A DNA stretch of 64,000 nt from an uncultured delta proteobacterium (GTDB taxonomy: Bacteria; Myxococcota_A; Polyangia; Polyangiales; Houyiibacteriaceae), in assembly GCA_963817725.1 (NCBI GenBank), contig CAWFPD010000004.1, positions 330,425-394,424 of the forward strand, given 5' to 3'. This document shows, in pieces, positions 54,531 to 64,000 of this stretch; within the stretch, counting starts at the first letter, position 1; each line of letters begins with the position of its first letter. The position numbers and the translations under genes are program-made. The notes under the pieces are model-generated. The model saw only the letters and a program-made list of their open reading frames with translations. It had not been told where the DNA came from and did no database searches.

Positions 54531-55960
54531 TCCCCGTAGCGACACTCGACGCCGCCATGCTCTACGCGGAGACGAAGGAGATGCCCATGCACACCATGGG
54601 CGTTTTGATCCTCGAACTGCAAGACGAGTCACAGGCAGCCATCGAGGGACGGTCGCCCTTCGAAGTCGTACAGCAGCGGTTCGCCGAGCGCATCCACTTG
54701 ATCCCCGCGTTTCGGCGACGGTTGGTGCAAGGGCCGCTCCAGATCGGCGACCCTCATTGGATCGAGGACCCATCGTTCGATCTCGACAAGCACCTGGTGC
54801 GCATCACGCTGCCCTCTCCGGGCACGATGCGCGACCTTTGTGAGCTCGTCGGCACTTTCGCGGCGAGCTGCCTCGATCGGGATCGTCCGCTGTGGAAAGC
54901 CGCGCTGGTCGAAGGCCTCGAGGACGGCAAGATCGCATTGATCATGAAGATTCACCACGCGGCGATGGATGGCGGCCGCGCTGCGGCCATCGCCAGCCAA
55001 CTGCTCGATACGAGCCTCGAAGGCGGAGAAGATCCGCCCCCCGGCGAGCCATGGATCCCCGACCGAGAGCCTTCCGTTTCTTGGCTAGCCGCCGACACGG
55101 TCAAAACGTTGGTTGGCAAGCCGCGACGCGCCGCACAGGCGGCAGCAAGAGTGGCCTCCGCAGTCCGGGCCCGGGGCCGCGCTCCGCAAGCACCGAAAAG
55201 CGACAGGCCCGCGCCGCCGTCCTTGTTCGACTCCCCTCCGACGCCTTTCAACGGCGCCCTCACATCGAACCGCTCCGTGGCGCTCGCCGATGTGGCGTTC
55301 GACGACGTGAAAGCGATCAAGCGCGCTTTCGGAACCACGGTGAACGACGTGGTGCTTGCGGCCTGCACCGCGAGCCTGCGATCTTGGCTCCTTGCCCACG
55401 GCGGACTTCCCGACCGTCCCTTGGTCGCGACGGTTCCCGTATCGGTTCGGCATGAAGGGGAGGACGCAGGCAACCGGGTGTCGGTGATCCGAGTGCATCT
55501 TCCCATCCAAAGCGAGGATCCCGTAGCCCGACTGATGAGCATCCACGAGGAGACGGCTCAGCGGAAAGAGCGACACAACCTCGGAGGCGGAGGCGGAGGC
55601 GACGTGCTCAGGAACTTCGCCGACGTGGTCAGCAACATCAGCGTGCCATGGATTCTGACCCACGTAATGAGCTTGTATTCGTCCTGGCATCTCGCCGATC
55701 GAGTTCCCCCGCTCTGGAACCTCGTCATCTCGAACATCGCGGGACCTCCGAAGCCGCTGTACTCACAGGGGGCGTTGCTCACGCATCTCTTTCCCCTGGG
55801 CCCGGTGCAACAAGGGTCGGGCCTCAACATCACGGTCATGAGCGTCGTGGATCGCCTCTGCTTTGGAGCATTGGCGTGCGCGGACTTGGTGCCCGACGTG
55901 GAGGATCTCGGTACTGGCTTCGTAGATGAAATCGAGCGGCTCTGCTCGATCTCACCATGA
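54527..55960 (+). CDS. Wax-ester synthase/diacylglycerol acyltransferase (WS/DGAT), intact
   Basis: Has the N-terminal LDAAMLYAETKEMPMH, the catalytic HHAAMDGG (HHxxxDG), NVAGP-like ISNIAGPPKPLY, and VMSVVDRLCFG. Confidence 0.85.
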   Translation: MIPVATLDAAMLYAETKEMPMHTMGVLILELQDESQAAIEGRSPFEVVQQRFAERIHLIPAFRRRLVQGPLQIGDPHWIEDPSFDLDKHLVRITLPSPGTMRDLCELVGTFAASCLDRDRPLWKAALVEGLEDGKIALIMKIHHAAMDGGRAAAIASQLLDTSLEGGEDPPPGEPWIPDREPSVSWLAADTVKTLVGKPRRAAQAAARVASAVRARGRAPQAPKSDRPAPPSLFDSPPTPFNGALTSNRSVALADVAFDDVKAIKRAFGTTVNDVVLAACTASLRSWLLAHGGLPDRPLVATVPVSVRHEGEDAGNRVSVIRVHLPIQSEDPVARLMSIHEETAQRKERHNLGGGGGGDVLRNFADVVSNISVPWILTHVMSLYSSWHLADRVPPLWNLVISNIAGPPKPLYSQGALLTHLFPLGPVQQGSGLNITVMSVVDRLCFGALACADLVPDVEDLGTGFVDEIERLCSISP

Positions 55961-57628
55961 CGGCCGCCAGGTCAGGTTTGATCCCAGCACCAGAACCCGC
56001 ACGTCTGAACCGAACATCCCGTCGGCTCGAAGGCCGAAATCCAAGTCGTCTCGCAGCGACAAGTAGAGGACTCCGCCAGCCGATTGCTGGAAATAGCTGT
56101 CCGGCGAAGCGTCATACTGATTGATCGACGCCCGATAGTACGCCGAGAGCTCGGCGATTCGGCCGATGTCGACACCGAGACCGAGACGAGCCGCATAATC
56201 CGCGACGAACGATTGGGCATAGGCCGCCACCGACACGTCAGCCCAACCGATCTCGCCGATGCGCAGGAAGCGCGCCTGCAGATAGCCGGTGATCTGGTCG
56301 TATTGATCGTCCGTTTGGCTGTGGACGATGCTGGCGCCTCCATAGAGCGCTACCCGCGAGAACGTGAAGCTCAAGTCGACGCCTCCGAAATAGCGATGGT
56401 CGTAGCTGTTCACGCATACGAGGGCATCGCCCGTGCTGGTCGTCGGGTCGGGCGCGGTGTTGCAAAGATACCCGAGCGGCAAATACGCGGTGAGCCAAAG
56501 CGATCGCTCCGGCAGACGCATGTCGAAACGGCCCGATATCTGGAAAAGCCCGAAACGTATCGAGGCATCCAGCCCTGCCATGCTCACCTCGGCCCGCGGC
56601 GCGAGCCAGGGGTTGTTCGCATCGTGTAGGGATAGCTCGAAATGCCCGGAGACGCGGGCTGTTCCTGGAAACACGTCGAATTCAGCATTCAAACGGCGCT
56701 CGTCGATTTCCCCCATGAAGATCGATCCATGGGCCGAGAGCGCCACGTACGGGTGGGAATCGAGCGTGTCGTTTTGATAGGCGAGCTCGGCGCCAAAACG
56801 GGCGGTATCGAGGGATGGGTAGTTGTCGAGTGGCTTGGGGACGGTGCCCCCAAAGGCGCCGATCGAAAAGCCCGCCCACGAAGGCGAGCGCACTCGAACG
56901 CCATCGAGCTGCCCCACACCCACCGCCACGTAAGGAAGCCTTCCGAGGGCGGCTTGCGGGGTCAGCGCGTTACCATAGCCAAACTGGAGCTCGCGCACCC
57001 GAACGATCGGCCGCGAGGAGCTTCCCGGACGATTCTGAATGTCGCCCCCGAACCAGGACTGCACCGCGACATCGACGTCGAAGAATACGGGTTGCTCGAA
57101 GGGCTCGGCATGAAGCCCCGCTCGCAGGGCCGCTCTGCCGAAGGAATTGCCTTCGCTGAGCGCGATGGTGCCTCCCACGTCGGTAGAGAGGAAGAGATCG
57201 ATCTTCTCTCCATCCGACCAAGTCCCGAGGGGTACGTAGTCCGGTTCTTGTTTGGTCGCCGGCAGCACGGGCTCGGGCCACTGGTCTTGGTAGGCGCTCA
57301 ACGGCTTCGGCTTGGGCAGCGCAGCAGCGACCTTGACTTCCCTCGACGCCTGCGAACGTCCCGTGGCGCCGGGCCGCAGCTCGCGTCCGCGCAACTCTAC
57401 TACGGAGTTCGTGCGGGTGACCGCAACGACTTGGTAGCGGCGATTGCGGAACACCACAACCGAGCCGATCTCGATCCCGGCATCCTGACCTGGCCGGAGA
57501 TAGGCCCGCCCGCCAGCCACCTCGACCACCTTGACCGTGACCGACTGCCGGGACTCTGCGTTCGCTCCCGACGTCAAGGCCACGATCCACATGAGCGCGC
57601 CGCAAGCTCGGAGGCAAACCTTCCTCAT
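55952..57628 (-). CDS. Predicted large outer-membrane beta-barrel (porin-like) protein; last gene of the multihaem cytochrome operon
   Basis: Signal peptide (ALTSGANA-ES). There are many alternating amphipathic strands, for example AEVSMAGLDASIRFGLFQISGRFDMRL and GGVLYLSLRDDLDFGLRADGMFG. The C-terminal residue is aromatic (TWRPSW). The ATG overlaps the upstream stop (57625-57628). Confidence 0.6.
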   Translation of the reverse strand: MRKVCLRACGALMWIVALTSGANAESRQSVTVKVVEVAGGRAYLRPGQDAGIEIGSVVVFRNRRYQVVAVTRTNSVVELRGRELRPGATGRSQASREVKVAAALPKPKPLSAYQDQWPEPVLPATKQEPDYVPLGTWSDGEKIDLFLSTDVGGTIALSEGNSFGRAALRAGLHAEPFEQPVFFDVDVAVQSWFGGDIQNRPGSSSRPIVRVRELQFGYGNALTPQAALGRLPYVAVGVGQLDGVRVRSPSWAGFSIGAFGGTVPKPLDNYPSLDTARFGAELAYQNDTLDSHPYVALSAHGSIFMGEIDERRLNAEFDVFPGTARVSGHFELSLHDANNPWLAPRAEVSMAGLDASIRFGLFQISGRFDMRLPERSLWLTAYLPLGYLCNTAPDPTTSTGDALVCVNSYDHRYFGGVDLSFTFSRVALYGGASIVHSQTDDQYDQITGYLQARFLRIGEIGWADVSVAAYAQSFVADYAARLGLGVDIGRIAELSAYYRASINQYDASPDSYFQQSAGGVLYLSLRDDLDFGLRADGMFGSDVRVLVLGSNLTWRPSW

Positions 57629-58542
57629 CGCGCCGTGCCTCCAGGATGGCATCCCAAGCAAGCGTGGGCGCTACCCGAGACGCGCTGCTTGTGTTGCTGT
57701 TGCAGCACGACCGCGTTGTGTGCGTGGCATCCCGTGCACCGGACGAATCGAGGCGTCTGCGCGGAGGTGTGGCAGCTGTTGCAACTCGCTCCACGATGGG
57801 GACCACGCGAAATGGGGAACGATCGATCGTGATTGGCGGGGACTGCCATTCCCCCCAGTCCGCCACGCACGGCGGCCGTCGTTGCGGCCGCAAGCGCGGT
57901 GGGGTCGATGAATGCAGGGCTCCAGGCGTGCGCCGTATGACATTGCGAGCAGTTCTGCGAAAACGGAGCGGTCGTTGCGGTTCCGCGATGGTCTGGATGA
58001 ACGTCGGGATCCAAATAGTCACTGGCGTGGCACGCAAAGCAATTGCTTTGTACCGTGGTCCATTGCCGTTCTCCGTTGCGCAGATGGCACTCGGTACAGG
58101 CCGCCAATGCGTGCATGCCCGTCAGCGGGAAGCGGGTTCGCCGATGGATTTCGAATGCCTCCATGTCGTTCCACCGCTTCGACGAATGACAGCTGTCGCA
58201 GCGGGCGCTCAGCCGCGACTGGTGCGGGTCCTTGTGGCACATGCTGCACTCACGTGTGACTCGCCGCTCGCCCTGGTGGCAACCGTTGCAAGCCACCGAC
58301 TCGTGCCTTCCGGTCAAGGGGAAACCCGTGCGGGAGTGGTCGAAGCCCTCCCCTTGCTTGCCGCCCGCCATGTTCCATCCAGCCGGTGTGTGGCAGTTGG
58401 CGCAATCGAGTCCCTCGGTGATCGAGTTGTGCCGGGACGCGACAGCGCTCGCCTTGCCCCGATCCGGATCCTTGGCCAGCGCAATACCCACAGCCCCTGC
58501 GAGGCCGGCTGCGACGACCGTGAAGAGCAAAGCCCGCTTCAC
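57625..58542 (-). CDS. Decahaem c-type cytochrome (10 CxxCH), secreted
   Basis: Ten CxxCH motifs counted: CANCH, CNGCH, CSMCH, CDSCH, CTECH, CFACH, CSQCH, CNSCH, CTGCH, CLGCH. Has a signal peptide. The GTG start overlaps the upstream TGA (GTGA at 58539-58542). Confidence 0.85.
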   Translation of the reverse strand: MKRALLFTVVAAGLAGAVGIALAKDPDRGKASAVASRHNSITEGLDCANCHTPAGWNMAGGKQGEGFDHSRTGFPLTGRHESVACNGCHQGERRVTRECSMCHKDPHQSRLSARCDSCHSSKRWNDMEAFEIHRRTRFPLTGMHALAACTECHLRNGERQWTTVQSNCFACHASDYLDPDVHPDHRGTATTAPFSQNCSQCHTAHAWSPAFIDPTALAAATTAAVRGGLGGMAVPANHDRSFPISRGPHRGASCNSCHTSAQTPRFVRCTGCHAHNAVVLQQQHKQRVSGSAHACLGCHPGGTAR

Positions 58543-60176
58543 CTTCCCCCCTTTCGCCGCGCGTGCGGATTGGCATGACAATCGGCACATTCCGTGTAAC
58601 CAAGACGGTATCGAATGACTTTGGACCCGCTACGAAGACGTTCCTTTCGATGGCACGCCACACACTTGAGATCCGCATGCACCCCTTCGAGGGGGTAATC
58701 GGCCAGCTCCGCATGGTCGAAGGATTCGATCTCGAACGAAACGGTCACATGACATGCGTCGCACTCTCGCTCGGGCGGTGTGAGGCGGAACTGCCCAGCA
58801 TGTACGTCGGTATGACAGCCGGAACATTCGCGTGGAGCTCCGCGGTATGTTGCGCCACTACCGCGGGCGCGGTCGCCCGGCGAGGCTTGATGACAGCTGT
58901 CACACGGCGTGCTGGCATGAACCCCGGTCAACGGCCACGAGCTGTGATCGATTTTGGGCGCATCCCATCCGCTCGAGGAATGACAGCTCGCACAGCCTCC
59001 CTCGGCCATTTCCTTGGCGAACTGGTCACCATGCGGGTTCTCGTGGCAATCGGCGCACTGCCTGCTCTTGACCCGGAGGTCGTACCTAGGCCGCTTGCCA
59101 CTGTGGCAGCTGCTGCAGGGAACTGCCTGGTGTTTCCCCTCCAGAGGAAAGTCCGTGCGGCCGTGTTGGGCTACGGAGAAGGAAGTCGGCCAAAAGCCCT
59201 GCTCATCGTGGCAGGTCGCGCAGTCCGTAGAGCCGAATTCGCCTCGGTGCGCATCGCGGTGGCAATCGGTGCACGCGGAGTACTTTAGACCCCGATAGCG
59301 ACGCGCTACGGGAAGCTTCGGAAGATGGCAGCGATTGCACGCGACCTCGGAGTGCATCCCTTCCAGTGGAAAGGCGGTCATCGGATGCGCGCGAAGACCG
59401 ACTCGTCGTGGCAAACCGAACCAACGAATGTTGGCGTGGCAGTTCTCGCACCGGTCGCCGAACTTGGCTTGGTGCACCTGTGCGTGGCAGGCGACGCACT
59501 CCGCGCCCGCGCTCGGCGGGTTGGTGTTGCCTTTGTCGTGACAGGCCTCGCACTTCGTCTTGGCATGACCCCCGGCCAGGCTCAGACCGGGATGATTGCT
59601 CCTGGCGTTCGTGACCTGGCTCCAGTCGGTTTCGTTGTGGCACGAGGTGCATTCGGCGTTGGCGAACCTGCCTTCGTGGGGATCCTCGTGGCAGGACACG
59701 CAGTCGGTCTTCAGACCGAGAAACGTCGCATGACCGCGCCGGTTCTTGCGATCATGGCAATCATCGCATTTCACCGGCGCGTGAGCGCCCTTGAGCGGCC
59801 AACCCGCTTGGCGATGGTCGAAGCGCTCGCGCGTGCCACCTGGCCACCGAACCAGCTTGGCGTTTCTTCCGAGATGCTCGACGTGGCATTGGCCACAGTC
59901 CTGCCCTCGATACTCGCGACCGTGCAGGCCTGCTTGCTGCCGTATCCGAGCGCGCAAGTCATCGTGGCAGCCGAGACAGGCGTCGGTATCGAGCCGCTGA
60001 CCGGTCGAATGGCACTCGTTGCATTTCGCATCTCCCTCGAGGTCCGCGTGGGCGTTGGTCAGCTTGCCCGGCGACAGGAACTGGGCGCCGGTTGACCGAG
60101 GCACAAGCACGCCCGTGACCGCGGCCGCGATCATCAGCGAGCCCAGCAACGCCATGGCTTTCGTGCGCCCGCTCAT
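58539..60176 (-). CDS. 20-haem c-type cytochrome (c7/c3-type repeated modules), secreted
   Basis: Twenty CxxCH motifs counted, with the recurring module FxH...PLxGxH....CxxCH. Has a signal peptide. The ATG overlaps the upstream stop (ATGA at 60173-60176). Confidence 0.85.
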   Translation of the reverse strand: MSGRTKAMALLGSLMIAAAVTGVLVPRSTGAQFLSPGKLTNAHADLEGDAKCNECHSTGQRLDTDACLGCHDDLRARIRQQAGLHGREYRGQDCGQCHVEHLGRNAKLVRWPGGTRERFDHRQAGWPLKGAHAPVKCDDCHDRKNRRGHATFLGLKTDCVSCHEDPHEGRFANAECTSCHNETDWSQVTNARSNHPGLSLAGGHAKTKCEACHDKGNTNPPSAGAECVACHAQVHQAKFGDRCENCHANIRWFGLPRRVGLRAHPMTAFPLEGMHSEVACNRCHLPKLPVARRYRGLKYSACTDCHRDAHRGEFGSTDCATCHDEQGFWPTSFSVAQHGRTDFPLEGKHQAVPCSSCHSGKRPRYDLRVKSRQCADCHENPHGDQFAKEMAEGGCASCHSSSGWDAPKIDHSSWPLTGVHASTPCDSCHQASPGDRARGSGATYRGAPRECSGCHTDVHAGQFRLTPPERECDACHVTVSFEIESFDHAELADYPLEGVHADLKCVACHRKERLRSGSKVIRYRLGYTECADCHANPHARRKGGR

Positions 60177-61060
60177 TGGGAAAAAATCCATCGGTAGCCG
60201 TAGATCCAGGCGACGGCGATGTGCACGGGAACGAGCAACACCAGGATGAGCGCGAGCAAGCGGTGGAACCCTCGCCACGACTGAAGCAGAGACGAGGCGC
60301 CCACCGCGACGACCTCGCGAGTCGCATACTTACGAACGGCGCGCTTGGCCTTTCGAAAGCGCCGGCGTTCCTTGCGGCCAAGAACACCAGCTACCGGGGC
60401 ATCTTCGATGACGTAGCTGACGATGAAGCCGCGGGACCGCGCGTCGCGCGCCCACTTTGGGACGGCGGCGAGCTTGGCAAGCAACCACCGGTGCGTATCG
60501 ACCTGGGTGACCTTGTGGATGGTGAGCGCGTGGTACACCCGCGTGCTGCATCCGGGAGCCAGCTCGTCCAACGATGCAAGCGCCCGCTCGAGCCCGGCGC
60601 GATCGGGACGCGGCGTGAGGGCGTAGAGGTATCGGCCCGCAACGCCCGTCGCCACCACGACCCCGAGACTGACCGCCGTGACCTGGGCGATGGGCGTTCG
60701 AAACTGGAAAGCGGAGTGAAATAGGATGAGAAGCGAGCCGATGAGGCCGGTAAAGACGTGTAGGTGTAGCCAACTCGCCATCGAACCAAGAGACCACCGA
60801 GCCAAACGGCGGCGCGCCAGGTAAAGAAGGTTGGCGAGGATCAGAACCGTGCCCACGATGCCGTACCCGTGCCCCACCAGGCCACCTGGCCGCAGAGAGT
60901 CGTACGCGCGGTGCTCGACCCGCGATTCGAGATCCGACAAGTAGAAGTCTTTGCCGACATCCCAAAGCACGTACGCCAGCACGCACAGCGCGAGCAGCAC
61001 GAGCAGAACGGCGGTTCGATCCGCACGGCGCTTCCCAGCACTCTTGGTTTGCCTCGCCAC
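60173..61060 (-). CDS. Polytopic inner-membrane protein with His in TM helices (possible haem-b/quinol-interacting partner)
   Basis: About five hydrophobic helices. His residues sit in WLHLHVFTGLIGSLLILFHSAF and FHRLLALILVLLVPVHIAVAW. GTG start. It is the first gene of the coupled operon. Confidence 0.55.
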   Translation of the reverse strand: MARQTKSAGKRRADRTAVLLVLLALCVLAYVLWDVGKDFYLSDLESRVEHRAYDSLRPGGLVGHGYGIVGTVLILANLLYLARRRLARWSLGSMASWLHLHVFTGLIGSLLILFHSAFQFRTPIAQVTAVSLGVVVATGVAGRYLYALTPRPDRAGLERALASLDELAPGCSTRVYHALTIHKVTQVDTHRWLLAKLAAVPKWARDARSRGFIVSYVIEDAPVAGVLGRKERRRFRKAKRAVRKYATREVVAVGASSLLQSWRGFHRLLALILVLLVPVHIAVAWIYGYRWIFSQ

Positions 61061-61169: not shown

Positions 61170-62483
61170 ATGACCACATGGACCGTACTTGCTTTCTTCG
61201 TCGCAGTCGCATTTGCCTTGAACCTCTATTGGAGGCGCCAGGAGCAGGCGCGCACTGAGACGGGCCGCCAGGAGCTCGAAGAGCTACGCGCGATGGGGGA
61301 CCTGGTCCCGGCCAGCATTCACCCTGAGATCGACCCGCTCCGATGTATCGGCTCGGGGGCTTGCGTCTACGCCTGCCCCGAGAAGAGCGTGCTGACCGTG
61401 GTCAATGGCAGGGGCGTGCTGACCAATCCCCTCGGTTGCATCGGACACGGCGCTTGCGCATCGGCGTGCCCCGTGCAGGCGATCTCCCTCGTGTTCGGCA
61501 CCGTCCAGCGCGGGCTCGAGCTCCCGCAGGTCGATTCCAACTTTCAGACGAACCAGCCCGGCGTCTACATCGTCGGCGAGCTCGGCGGGATGGGGCTCAT
61601 CCGCAACGCGGTGTCCCAGGGGCGGCAGGCCGCGGAGCATATCGTGGCGAGCGATCGAAGGGGAGCGGGTGAGTGCCTGGACGCGTTGGTCGTCGGCGCA
61701 GGCCCGGCCGGCACCAGTGCGACGCTTCGTCTCATGGAAGCGGGACTACGGGTGTTGTTGCTCGAACGCGAAGCCTTTGGCGGCACGATTGCGCATTATC
61801 CCCGGGCAAAGGTCGTGATGACGGGATCCCTCGACTTCCCGATGTACGGGCGCGTATCGAAGCGAAAGATGAGCAAAGAGCAGCTGGTCACGCTTTGGGA
61901 AGATATTCGCGACAAGACCGACCTGCATGTCGCCGTGGGCGAGCTCGTCCAAAAGATCGAGCCTGCAAGCGATGGCAGCTGGATGGTCCATGCCACGACC
62001 GGTGTCTTTCGAGCTGCTAACGTGCTCCTGGCGCTCGGGCGCCGTGGCTCTCCACGCAAGCTCGATGTACCCGGTGAGGAGCGCGCCAAAGTGGCGTACC
62101 GGGTCATCGAGCCGGAGGTGTTCAGAGACCAGCACGTGCTCGTGGTGGGAGGCGGCAATGCAGCCGTGGAGTCGGCTTTTGCGTTGATCGACGAGGGGCA
62201 ATGCGCCTCGGTGAGCATCAGCTACCGGAAAAACAGCTTTGCCAGGTGCCGTCAGCCGAATCGAAAGCGGGTCGAAGCGGAAATCGAAGCGGGTCGGCTG
62301 ACCGCGTTGATGGGCACAGAGGTCGAGGAGATCCTCGAAGATCGAGTCACGCTTCGCAATGGGTCCGCAGAGCGGATCTCCATCCGGAACGACGCCGTGG
62401 TGGTTCAGATCGGCGGGACAGCACCAACCGATTTGCTTCAGGGCATCGGTGTCGAGATCGTGACCAAATACGGAGAGGCCTAG
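61170..62483 (+). CDS. Membrane-anchored ferredoxin-like / FAD-NAD(P) pyridine-nucleotide-disulfide-type oxidoreductase
   Basis: N-terminal TM helix (WTVLAFFVAVAFALNLYW). Two three-Cys ferredoxin-like motifs, CIGSGACVYACP and CIGHGACASACP. Dinucleotide folds ALVVGAGPAGTSATLRL and VLVVGGGNAAVESA. Confidence 0.7.
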   Translation: MTTWTVLAFFVAVAFALNLYWRRQEQARTETGRQELEELRAMGDLVPASIHPEIDPLRCIGSGACVYACPEKSVLTVVNGRGVLTNPLGCIGHGACASACPVQAISLVFGTVQRGLELPQVDSNFQTNQPGVYIVGELGGMGLIRNAVSQGRQAAEHIVASDRRGAGECLDALVVGAGPAGTSATLRLMEAGLRVLLLEREAFGGTIAHYPRAKVVMTGSLDFPMYGRVSKRKMSKEQLVTLWEDIRDKTDLHVAVGELVQKIEPASDGSWMVHATTGVFRAANVLLALGRRGSPRKLDVPGEERAKVAYRVIEPEVFRDQHVLVVGGGNAAVESAFALIDEGQCASVSISYRKNSFARCRQPNRKRVEAEIEAGRLTALMGTEVEEILEDRVTLRNGSAERISIRNDAVVVQIGGTAPTDLLQGIGVEIVTKYGEA

Positions 62484-63169
62484 TCGCCGCGATTGATGCC
62501 GTCTGCATGGCAGTCGAGGCAGAAATTCGGCGGCGCCGCTCCACTCGGATAGTTACCGACCTCGTTGTGCTTTGGATCCATCCGGGCCCGCGTGTGCGCA
62601 CCGTCGTGGCAACCGACACAATCGGCGTTCTCGCCATTCACAGGTGAGCCGAGATCCGGGTTGTGACAGGATACACAGTCATTGCGGTAGGGCGAGTGCG
62701 GCCCGCTTTGAATCGGGAAGGCGTTTTCCGGATGCGTGCCACCGGTCGCGGGTGTCCAAGCGGTCGTAGTGTGACAGTTCTGGCAGGTCGTGGGGAACTC
62801 CGAATGGCCCGGGAATGGGCTCGAATCGTAGTCGGCTTGATGACAACCCACACAAGCCGTCGGCGTGCCCGCGTACACCGGCGGATCGCCCACGTGACAC
62901 GAGCCGCAATCGAGACTCTCGTGTGCGCCGGTCAGCGGCCATTGATGCTGGAACTCGGCCGGCGACCAAGCATCGCTGTTGTGGCAGGTCCCGCAGGTAT
63001 CTGGGAAACCCTCATGCGGCGGGTTCAGCGCGTGCTGCACATCGGCTGCGTGGCACACGATGCAATCGCTGCTGCGAACCTTCATCCGCTCGTGGTCCTG
63101 CGCGCTGCCCCCAATGCAGGCGTGAATGAACCACACCACGACGATCAACCCGATCCTCAACGCTCGCAT
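62480..63169 (-). CDS. Octahaem c-type cytochrome, secreted (possibly lipidated)
   Basis: Eight CxxCH motifs: CIVCH, CGTCH, CGSCH, CVGCH, CQNCH, CVSCH, CVGCH, CLDCH. The start is placed at MRALRIGLIVVVWFIHAC. Confidence 0.8.
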   Translation of the reverse strand: MRALRIGLIVVVWFIHACIGGSAQDHERMKVRSSDCIVCHAADVQHALNPPHEGFPDTCGTCHNSDAWSPAEFQHQWPLTGAHESLDCGSCHVGDPPVYAGTPTACVGCHQADYDSSPFPGHSEFPTTCQNCHTTTAWTPATGGTHPENAFPIQSGPHSPYRNDCVSCHNPDLGSPVNGENADCVGCHDGAHTRARMDPKHNEVGNYPSGAAPPNFCLDCHADGINRGD

Positions 63170-63350
63170 CGACCCTCTCGAAGAAGAAAAAGCCAGATCT
63201 TCAAGATAGCAGTCGTAGCGTAATCCAGGTAGTCGAGCGTGGATACTTTCTAGATTACATAAGATGCTGAAAACATAGCGTTTTAGTTGATTGACATTCC
63301 GTGACAAGATTAATCTATCAGGGTTATATAATTAAGATAGATTATAACCC
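63170..63350. promoter_or_regulatory. AT-rich divergent control region between two multihaem cytochrome genes
   Basis: A strong AT island. Repeated AAGATAG (63203-63209, 63334-63340) and TAGATTA (63251-63257, 63338-63344). The inverted repeat GGTTATA-N14-TATAACC (63322-63349) ends 1 nt before the ATG. The 12-mer CTGAAAACATAG (63267-63278) is shared with 16177-16188. Confidence 0.55.
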
Positions 63351-64000
63351 ATGAGGGTGAGTACGGGTATCCTGCTGATGGCGGTTGGCGCCAGCGCCCT
63401 GATCGGCGTCGGGTGCAGTGGGGACACGGGCGCCTCGCATGAGCCAGGGACGGTCCGTCAAGCCGAATGCATCACGTGCCATGAGGCGGACCGCAAAGGA
63501 GCGCTCAGTCCACCGCACGACAGCCTGCCAACTACCTGTCAGGACTGCCACTCTGAGCATCAGTGGATCCCCGCGCTGTCGACCACGATTCACACGCCAC
63601 TTCCGGCATCGTGCTTGACGTGTCACGAAGACGAGCCGCGGCCCGAGACGATCTTCCACACGCAGATGCTCGACCCGGAGTGCGCCCGCTGCCATCGAAG
63701 CTTTCCCGATTGGACACGGGCTGACTTCCTTCACGCCCCGGTGCCTGAAACCTGCAACGCTTGCCACAGCGATCTCAGACCCGACACGCCGACTCATCAA
63801 TCCGCCGCGGGCCAGGGCGATTGTGCCTCGTGCCACATCGTCACCGACTGGTCCGTCACCGACCCAGCGGAGCTCCACACGCCACTTCCGGCATCGTGCT
63901 CGACGTGTCACCAAAACGAACAGCGTGAGCAGACGGTCTTCCACACCCAGGTGCTCGAGCCGGAGTGCGCCAGCTGCCACCAGAACTATCCGGATTGGAC
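63351..64000 (+). CDS. Modular multihaem c-type cytochrome lipoprotein; 5' part, open at the 3' window edge (not in the supplied ORF track)
   Basis: My own translation from the ATG at 63351 reads MRVSTGILLMAVGASALIGVGCSGD..., has no stop through 64000, and carries lipobox IGVGC. Eight CxxCH so far: CITCH, CQDCH, CLTCH, CARCH, CNACH, CASCH, CSTCH, CASCH. A 285-nt module begins to repeat at 63591 and 63876. Confidence 0.8.
   Translation, partial: MRVSTGILLMAVGASALIGVGCSGDTGASHEPGTVRQAECITCHEADRKGALSPPHDSLPTTCQDCHSEHQWIPALSTTIHTPLPASCLTCHEDEPRPETIFHTQMLDPECARCHRSFPDWTRADFLHAPVPETCNACHSDLRPDTPTHQSAAGQGDCASCHIVTDWSVTDPAELHTPLPASCSTCHQNEQREQTVFHTQVLEPECASCHQNYPDW

Follow-up and report, generated by a model that had tools for sequence, protein, structure and literature searches.

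A tandem four-haem module forms the core of a predicted 29-haem lipoprotein cytochrome encoded near a PCC3-type operon in an uncultured myxobacterium

Close to the end of a 64,000-nt stretch of DNA from an uncultured myxobacterium begins a previously unlisted gene for a c-type cytochrome with 29 haem-binding CxxCH motifs. This stretch as a whole is called the window (G000:C4:330425-394424, where G000 is the host genome, a metagenome-assembled genome (MAG) of 15 contigs). We consider it likely that the gene product is a 727-aa, Sec-exported and lipid-anchored multihaem cytochrome (MHC) which serves as an outer-membrane electron wire beside the conduit encoded by a neighbouring PCC3-type operon. 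Among all open frames of the host genome, this one has the highest CxxCH count.

Within the window, the plus-strand frame that starts with the ATG at 63351 has no stop and stays open at the window end (216 aa, 3′-open), as had been stated in an earlier interpretation made from the letters of the window (the sequence-only reading). The N-terminus of this frame reads MRVSTGILLMAVGASALIGVGC, and the eight CxxCH motifs which had been counted in it could be placed at residues 40, 63, 88, 111, 135, 158, 183 and 206. It had also been expected that a long haem array continues past the window, and extension along the contig bore this out. The full gene spans G000:C4:393775-395958 (window-equivalent 63351-65534) and thus runs for 1,534 nt beyond the window end. 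The whole frame of 2,184 nt codes for 727 aa with 29 CxxCH motifs and six modules; the variants CxxxCH and CxxxxCH are absent. An in-frame stop or frameshift just downstream, named beforehand as something that would speak against the gene, is not found, and the frame is intact down to its stop codon at C4:395956-395958.

The protein is dominated by a tandem array. The segment starting at 63591 recurs at 63876, as had been noticed, with the first 25 nt being identical and with 83% identity across the 125 nt that are visible in the window. This defines a period of 285 nt, and over their full length modules 1 and 2 share 84.6% identity at the nucleotide and 76.8% at the amino acid level. Tandem Repeats Finder reports a single array with a period of 285, 5.1 copies, 77% matches and a score of 1475, and the repeat is far beyond chance. 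All parts of the gene are on the plus strand. The start codon, signal peptide and lipobox occupy 63351..63416 (residues 1-22, ...ALIGVG-C22) and are followed by a linker and a two-haem head at 63417..63590 (residues 23-80, CxxCH at 40 and 63). Module 1 of six (63591..63875) has 95 aa with four CxxCH and eight His, arranged as two doubled-CXXCH (PF09699) di-haem units. Only the first 125 nt of module 2 (63876..64000) are in the window, while its remainder and the whole of modules 3-6 are past it; the start points of modules 2-6 are C4:394300, 394585, 394870, 395155 and 395440.

The 95-aa four-haem module that had been described from the window could be followed over the full array. Five modules are in register (residues 81-555, 95 aa and four CxxCH each), with pairwise identities of 70-85% at the nucleotide and 67-82% at the amino acid level. 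The sixth module (residues 556 to about 640) is diverged and shows about 45% amino acid identity with the others. A three-haem tail (residues about 640-727) extends from about C4:395692 to the stop codon. The Pfam model for doubled CXXCH motifs, PF09699, matches 14 stretches of the protein with 121.9 bits against a cut-off of 20.6. Families of the c3/c7 type match as well, and TIGR01905, with a score of 23.7, stays just below its cut-off of 25.2.

Conservation within the modules concerns the residues expected to hold the haems. Across 47 aligned module pairs, all Cys, two Trp and eight His per module (H1, H12, H23, H35, H48, H59, H69 and H82) are invariant. Outside the motifs there are 33 His for 29 haems, and Met occurs in the mature chain only at 106 and 698. 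This content, in line with a class III-like c-type cytochrome, is compatible with bis-His ligation, which, in view of the eight invariant His per module, probably applies to all haems. In the mature chain there are 24.3 residues for each haem; the protein has a high content of Thr, Ala, Ser and Pro, and Cys22 of the lipobox is its only free Cys. A dense chain in which all haems are bis-His ligated would suggest a function in electron transfer and not in catalysis.

The lipoprotein signal that had been proposed for the N-terminus also stood up to comparison. Cys22 is invariant in an alignment of 10 sequences, R2 gives a positive n-region, and a PS51257-like lipobox pattern (PROSITE-style) matches the 29-haem protein, all its orthologues, and a metagenome protein designated P0003. 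For cytochrome c maturation, the host genome has three matches above cut-off to PF01578 (CcmC/CcmF/CcsA family).

The only closed open reading frame (ORF) that had been listed at this place is found on the opposite strand. It has 212 aa (63342..63980, minus strand), and it might be argued that this is the expressed product and that the plus frame is open by chance. The antisense ORF does exist and is the sole closed one of the list once open-ended frames are left aside, and over the whole length of the host gene its frame has only 6 stops, the longest part free of stops being 420 codons. However, the same frame is cut by stops in every orthologue, at positions that differ (3-7 stops across eight genes, with a longest open stretch of 172-518 codons). 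In addition, the G+C content of the antisense frame peaks at codon position 1 (0.756) and not at position 3, where that of the sure genes of the window peaks. Substitutions between orthologues, counted in the plus frame, fall on codon position 3 about three times as often as on position 1 or 2. This pattern and the family and homology matches are all in the plus frame, although no separate search was made with the antisense product. We therefore judge the antisense ORF to be a by-product of G+C-rich coding sequence, and consider its expression in place of the plus frame extremely improbable.

At least nine other species-level MAGs (Polyangiales/'Myxococcales') have orthologues that show about 75% identity and share the 29-haem layout. 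Seven orthologues, all intact, of full length and from other assemblies, were read directly, and they have their 29 motifs at the same spacing. The ratio of nonsynonymous to synonymous substitution rates (dN/dS) between the host gene and its orthologues is 0.11-0.17. The gene, which had been proposed as an unlisted open-ended one, is thus real and intact, and it is under strong purifying selection.

It must be considered that tandem repeats are prone to mis-assembly and that the host genome is a MAG of many contigs, so that the module count could be an artefact, or the gene a decaying pseudogene, with the true product being shorter or frameshifted. One relative indeed holds a broken second copy. 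However, nucleotide differences of 15-30% between the modules would keep assemblers from confusing them, and the same spacing of 29 motifs is obtained from seven independently assembled orthologues, to which further near-full-length matches can be added. As the modules differ this much and the independent assemblies agree, mis-assembly of the array is unlikely. With in-frame stops being absent, every CxxCH intact, and the low dN/dS, we regard an artefact or a pseudogene as highly improbable, if slightly less so than expression from the antisense strand. The broken copy just mentioned (G221:C1:1796340-1798217, = L014) is a second 29-haem gene copy that is split into three frames and is about one module short. 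It is either a decaying duplicate or reflects a problem of the bin or assembly, with bin contamination given as 10%.

From the identity of the first 25 nt of two modules it had been concluded that the module was recently amplified. For the array as a whole this did not hold up. In a maximum likelihood tree of 55 modules from 10 proteins, modules cluster largely by position (module 6 with 100/100 and the main module 4 clade with 99/94; bootstrap values for the position groups of modules 1, 3 and 5 are 85-96). The mean identity between species is 72-79% for modules at the same position versus 62-71% for modules at different positions. Synonymous divergence (dS) is 0.38-2.7 among the modules within the host gene and 0.9-1.5 among orthologues. 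From the grouping by position and the dS values, the six-module array, which is shared with the orthologues, is old and predates the split of these species. The tree, the identity matrices and the dS values between modules together led us to reject a recent amplification of the whole array.

It is only the pair visible in the window, modules 1 and 2, that is unusually alike (dS 0.38). Host module 1 lacks a consistent positional orthologue, and its best matches elsewhere are modules 2 or 3. In the tree, host modules 2-3 and modules 1-3 of the nearest relative (L006) fall unresolved into one group, with host module 1 just inside. This points to a local homogenization of module 1 with modules 2 and 3, which would be a case of local gene conversion and not of a young array.

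The 29-haem protein belongs to a family which is present in 21 of 55 genomes of the genus. In 10 of these, the host included, the form of roughly 730 aa is intact and near full length, and it is fragmented in one more. A shorter family member is encoded directly next to the 29-haem gene and transcribed divergently from it. This 8-haem paralogue (62480..63169, minus strand, 229 aa) has a single 3-haem module between the head and the same 3-haem tail. Its head shows 41% identity to residues 21-95 of the 29-haem protein, and its identity to the last 141 residues of that protein (585-725) is 65%. A 14-haem paralogue, which has the same head and tail but three tandem 3-haem modules of about 68 aa in between, is found in sister genomes (L020:3651-4883 in G084, L021:3914-5050 in G063, and L019:3574-4713 in G124). 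The metagenome protein P0003 (447 aa) has 17 haems and three modules and is encoded, in three metagenome samples, at the syntenic position of the 29-haem gene, and metagenome protein P0002 has 21 haems. The head is common to the 8-haem and 14-haem paralogues, to P0004-P0006, and to P0013.

The forms with 8, 14, 17, 21 and 29 haems share head and tail, and the number of modules varies among relatives. The variants of the array comprise the 3-haem module in one or three copies, the 4-haem module in three, four or six copies, and the tail in six copies. The latter is seen in the metagenome proteins P0004, P0005 and P0006 (about 500 aa), in which the same lipobox and two-haem head are followed by about six tandem 3-haem tail domains (HPE.AFPI...NFCL.CH). 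In these three, a different module of the same family has been amplified independently. One may speculate that what is encoded here is a 'length-adjustable' family of lipoprotein cytochromes of the outer membrane, where head and tail are constant, where type and copy number of the modules have been expanded independently, and where the number of modules is an adaptive ruler of reach or of the charge exchanged with minerals or partners. In this full form the proposal is doubtful, and we offer it as a suggestion.

Some details of the paralogues were noted in passing. In the host 8-haem paralogue, the candidate lipid-anchor Cys is preceded by residues that give FIHAC, which fails the PROSITE-like lipobox pattern. 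Its orthologues mostly have canonical-looking boxes at the aligned Cys (LQGAC, LSLAC, WSAC, GSAC), as judged by eye. In G084 and G063 the 14-haem gene is located between the divergent 8-haem gene and the 29-haem gene. G124 has the 14-haem paralogue and no 29-haem gene, and the host genome has no 14-haem paralogue. The 8- and 29-haem genes of the host are separated by an AT-rich divergent intergenic region of 181 bp (63170-63350). No Shine-Dalgarno sequence is obvious before the ATG at 63351, and scans for promoters (consensus sigma-70) and terminators in the window from about 62975 onward gave nothing above shuffled expectation.

The genomic context is the basis for the link to PCC3. The PCC3-type operon of the window (55952..61060, minus strand) codes for a 295-aa inner-membrane protein, two cytochromes with 20 and 10 haems, and a predicted beta-barrel of 569 aa. 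Two WX3HX13H motifs were read from the sequence of the 295-aa protein. Such motifs are described as the hallmark of PCC3, in which a porin, a periplasmic MHC with some 21 haems and an inner-membrane protein of about 300 aa that carries the two motifs are encoded together (He et al. 2017, PMC5566968). The extracellular MHCs of PCC3 have 10-35 haems, repeats, and a low residue-to-haem ratio, and the periplasmic cytochrome has 21-27 haems (PMC5566968; Hoover et al. 2023, PMC10734462). The porin, the periplasmic MHC and the WX3HX13H inner-membrane protein are all encoded 0.3-7 kb upstream of the 29-haem gene and are syntenic in relatives. Between the operon and the 8-haem gene lies another conserved neighbour (61170..62483, plus strand), a membrane-anchored protein that resembles 2x[Fe-S] and pyridine-nucleotide-disulfide oxidoreductases. 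The conserved gene order begins with WS/DGAT or PFK, the 569-aa beta-barrel, the 10-haem and 20-haem cytochromes and the 295-aa inner-membrane protein. It continues with the divergent Fe-S/flavoprotein, the lipoproteins with 8 and with 29 haems and, as a convergent set, a predicted outer-membrane protein and an MMPL gene. A distant homologue of 790 aa is encoded about 9 kb from a set of an Fe-S/flavoprotein, a DUF4405-type membrane protein and MHCs. When the 295-aa inner-membrane protein was used as query, no proteobacterial name was found among the best 120 matches, all of which were uncultured Myxococcota-type relatives or had no name.

The last two genes of the conserved order are just past the window. 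This convergent set 3′ of the 29-haem gene (G000:C4:396195-401272) is syntenic in all relatives and consists of the predicted outer-membrane protein (536 aa, no Pfam match, acidic N-terminus, ending with ...RLRYSF) and an MMPL/RND transporter (872 aa). At the P0003 loci, a DUF1329/TP_0789 (LolA-like) gene is located between the two. Elsewhere in the host genome there is a second island of multihaem cytochromes (G000:C10:372161-383687), the frames of which have 23, 13, 10, 9, 8 and 7 CxxCH.

For the function of the 29-haem protein as an outer-membrane electron wire, we envisage the following steps. The protein would be exported by Sec, lipidated, and loaded with haems by a Ccm-type system. All haems would be bis-His ligated and low-spin and would form one continuous chain of roughly 25-30 nm. 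This length is scaled from MtrA, with ten haems over about 8 nm, and from GSU1996, with twelve haems over 12 nm. As there is no Asp at position +2, sorting by the Lol system would lead to an anchor in the outer membrane, where the protein would pass electrons from the PCC3 conduit to external or periplasmic partners or the other way round, with external substrates being either reduced or oxidised. The number of modules may set the reach or the charge capacity.

The main alternative is that the 29-haem protein is a lipoprotein that faces the periplasm, with its lipid anchor in the inner leaflet of the outer membrane or else in the inner membrane. It would then store electrons, like a capacitor, or relay them across the periplasm, and its charge capacity, not its external reach, would depend on the number of modules. 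Capacitor-like roles and periplasm-spanning lengths have indeed been suggested for many-haem MHCs of PCC3 (PMC10734462). In diderm bacteria, the default orientation of lipoproteins is towards the periplasm, and no dedicated component for surface export was identified next to the 29-haem gene. Moreover, the PCC3-type operon already has a candidate extracellular partner of its own, the 10-haem cytochrome beside the barrel. However, those lipoprotein multihaem cytochromes of porin-cytochrome systems that have been characterised, MtrC/OmcA and OmcB/OmcC, lie exposed at the cell surface. In addition, a periplasmic cytochrome with 20 haems is already provided by the operon, and for this size a span across the periplasm has been proposed (PMC10734462). 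On balance we consider the periplasmic role rather unlikely, and by analogy to MtrC and OmcB a surface-exposed orientation is mildly favoured over a periplasm-facing one.

Several observations weigh against the proposed electron wire beside the PCC3 conduit. Besides the presence of the 10-haem cytochrome in the operon, the 29-haem gene is divergent from the operon and separated from its first gene by two others. In one relative (L015/G222) the pair of 8- and 29-haem genes is kept but the PCC3 operon is absent at that site. Among the 55 genomes of the genus, the inner-membrane protein is found in 22, the cytochrome family in 21, and both in 20. This co-occurrence is in favour of the link, but it reflects a shared island and is no proof of joint function, as close kin are not independent. 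Structure prediction did not help: AlphaFold2 reached a mean pLDDT of 45.4 and a pTM of 0.18 for the full protein (with the 10-sequence orthologue alignment) and a pLDDT of 53.1 for a fragment of two modules (with an alignment of 47 module pairs). The quality of both models is too low for them to support a linear wire geometry. Furthermore, the rules of lipoprotein sorting in Myxococcota differ from those in E. coli, and location in the outer membrane or at the surface is therefore a guess. Even so, we retain the outer-membrane wire as the more probable role of the protein.

To the candidate equipment for extracellular electron transfer in a myxobacterial genus that is uncultured and has small genomes, the analysis adds a complete and well-conserved 29-haem lipoprotein. 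The forms with 8, 14, 17, 21 and 29 haems, the ends of which are identical, are a natural series in which the dependence of electron transfer on the length of a haem chain could be studied. The value of the work is in annotation and comparison and not in a new concept, as far larger examples of this class exist. A search with the 95-aa module retrieved 652 proteins among 1.84 billion representatives. Many of the matching proteins are much longer than the 29-haem protein, with up to 3,592 aa and 52 matched stretches, and some of them contain 17-52 such stretches. The literature also reports MAG-derived cytochromes in which haem motifs number more than 100. Judged by these matches, the 29-haem protein is a mid-sized member of a widespread and already known class, the repetitive doubled-CXXCH multihaem cytochromes.

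Within this class, the protein could be compared with several characterised systems. None of the NCBIfam models scores above its curated cut-off on the 29-haem protein. The top model is that of the DmsE/MtrA decahaem cytochromes (TIGR03508), which matches five stretches with 120.3 bits versus a cut-off of 192.2. The best match in the PDB is 6r2q_A, with an E-value of 1e-6 for the sequence and 8.4e-8 for the module profile, covering 166 positions with seven CxxCH in register. We take 6r2q to be the MtrCAB complex of Shewanella baltica, with chain A being MtrA. The chain (333 residues) is named 'Cystathionine beta-synthase' in the PDB table, which is probably a labelling error. Further PDB matches are the c7-like subunit of ACIII, NrfB, Hmc, MtrC (E 0.005) and STC. 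In the PDB sequence and profile searches up to an E-value of 1, no chain of GSU1996, OmcS, OmcE or OmcZ was found, and PpcA-type c7 chains were retrieved only with E-values of 0.2-0.4.

Comparison with the c7 polymer GSU1996 and with OmcS/OmcZ had been suggested at the outset, and neither assignment survived the NCBIfam and PDB searches. The protein resembles OmcS, OmcE and OmcZ in that it would serve long-range electron transfer via stacked haems. It differs from them in that its length would come from one polypeptide with tandem modules and not from polymerisation. The lipid anchor argues against a free filament, and the type of the OmcS/OmcE/OmcZ filaments was rejected in view of the missing PDB match. 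With GSU1996 (Geobacter, dodecahaem, PDB 3OV0) the protein shares the 'nanowire' concept of tandem small multihaem modules, and the Pfam family Cytochrome_C7 (PF14522) matches 12 of its stretches with 94.4 bits. However, its module has 4 haems in 95 aa, in contrast to 3 haems in about 75-80 aa for c7, and it lacks the conserved Met for the c7-type His-Met haem of each domain. A GSU1996-type polymer was rejected because of the four-haem modules, a score of 20.3 bits versus 120 for CytC7_Geobact, and the lack of a significant PDB match.

MtrA and DmsE are similar to the 29-haem protein in having a dense haem chain that is probably bis-His ligated, and an MtrA-like decahaem chain is its closest solved relative, if a remote one. 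They differ in having 10 haems versus 29, while the lipid anchor and the tandem 95-aa periodicity distinguish the 29-haem protein, and no MtrB-type barrel is adjacent to its gene in an MtrAB arrangement. The subthreshold TIGR03508 score and the 29 haems led us to reject membership in this family.

Like MtrC/OmcA of Shewanella and OmcB/OmcC of Geobacter, the protein combines a lipoprotein signal with multiple haems, and its gene is near those for a porin and a periplasmic cytochrome. PF22113 (domains II/IV of MtrC/MtrF) matches it with 57.7 bits against a cut-off of 30. At the OmcB position of Geobacter, an outer cytochrome that differs among species is found beside a conserved porin and conserved periplasmic partners (PMC2825233). 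We liken the 29-haem locus to this position, as it also has a variable, putative outer cytochrome beside conserved partners. Unlike MtrC and OmcB, the protein has 29 haems instead of 10-12, its haem motifs are found throughout, and there is no match to the flanking domains I and III of the MtrC type.

From the MHCs of PCC3, the protein differs in that its repeat is a fixed 95-aa pair of di-haem units with a family-specific two-haem head and three-haem tail, in being a lipoprotein, and in being encoded outside the operon. It resembles the extracellular MHCs of PCC3, by published criteria, in having many haems, repeats and a low residue-to-haem ratio. Being a chain of di-haem units, the abundance of Thr, Ala, Ser and Pro, and a number of haems that varies among relatives are further shared features. 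It is also like them in that its gene is located near those for a porin, a periplasmic MHC and a WX3HX13H inner-membrane protein.

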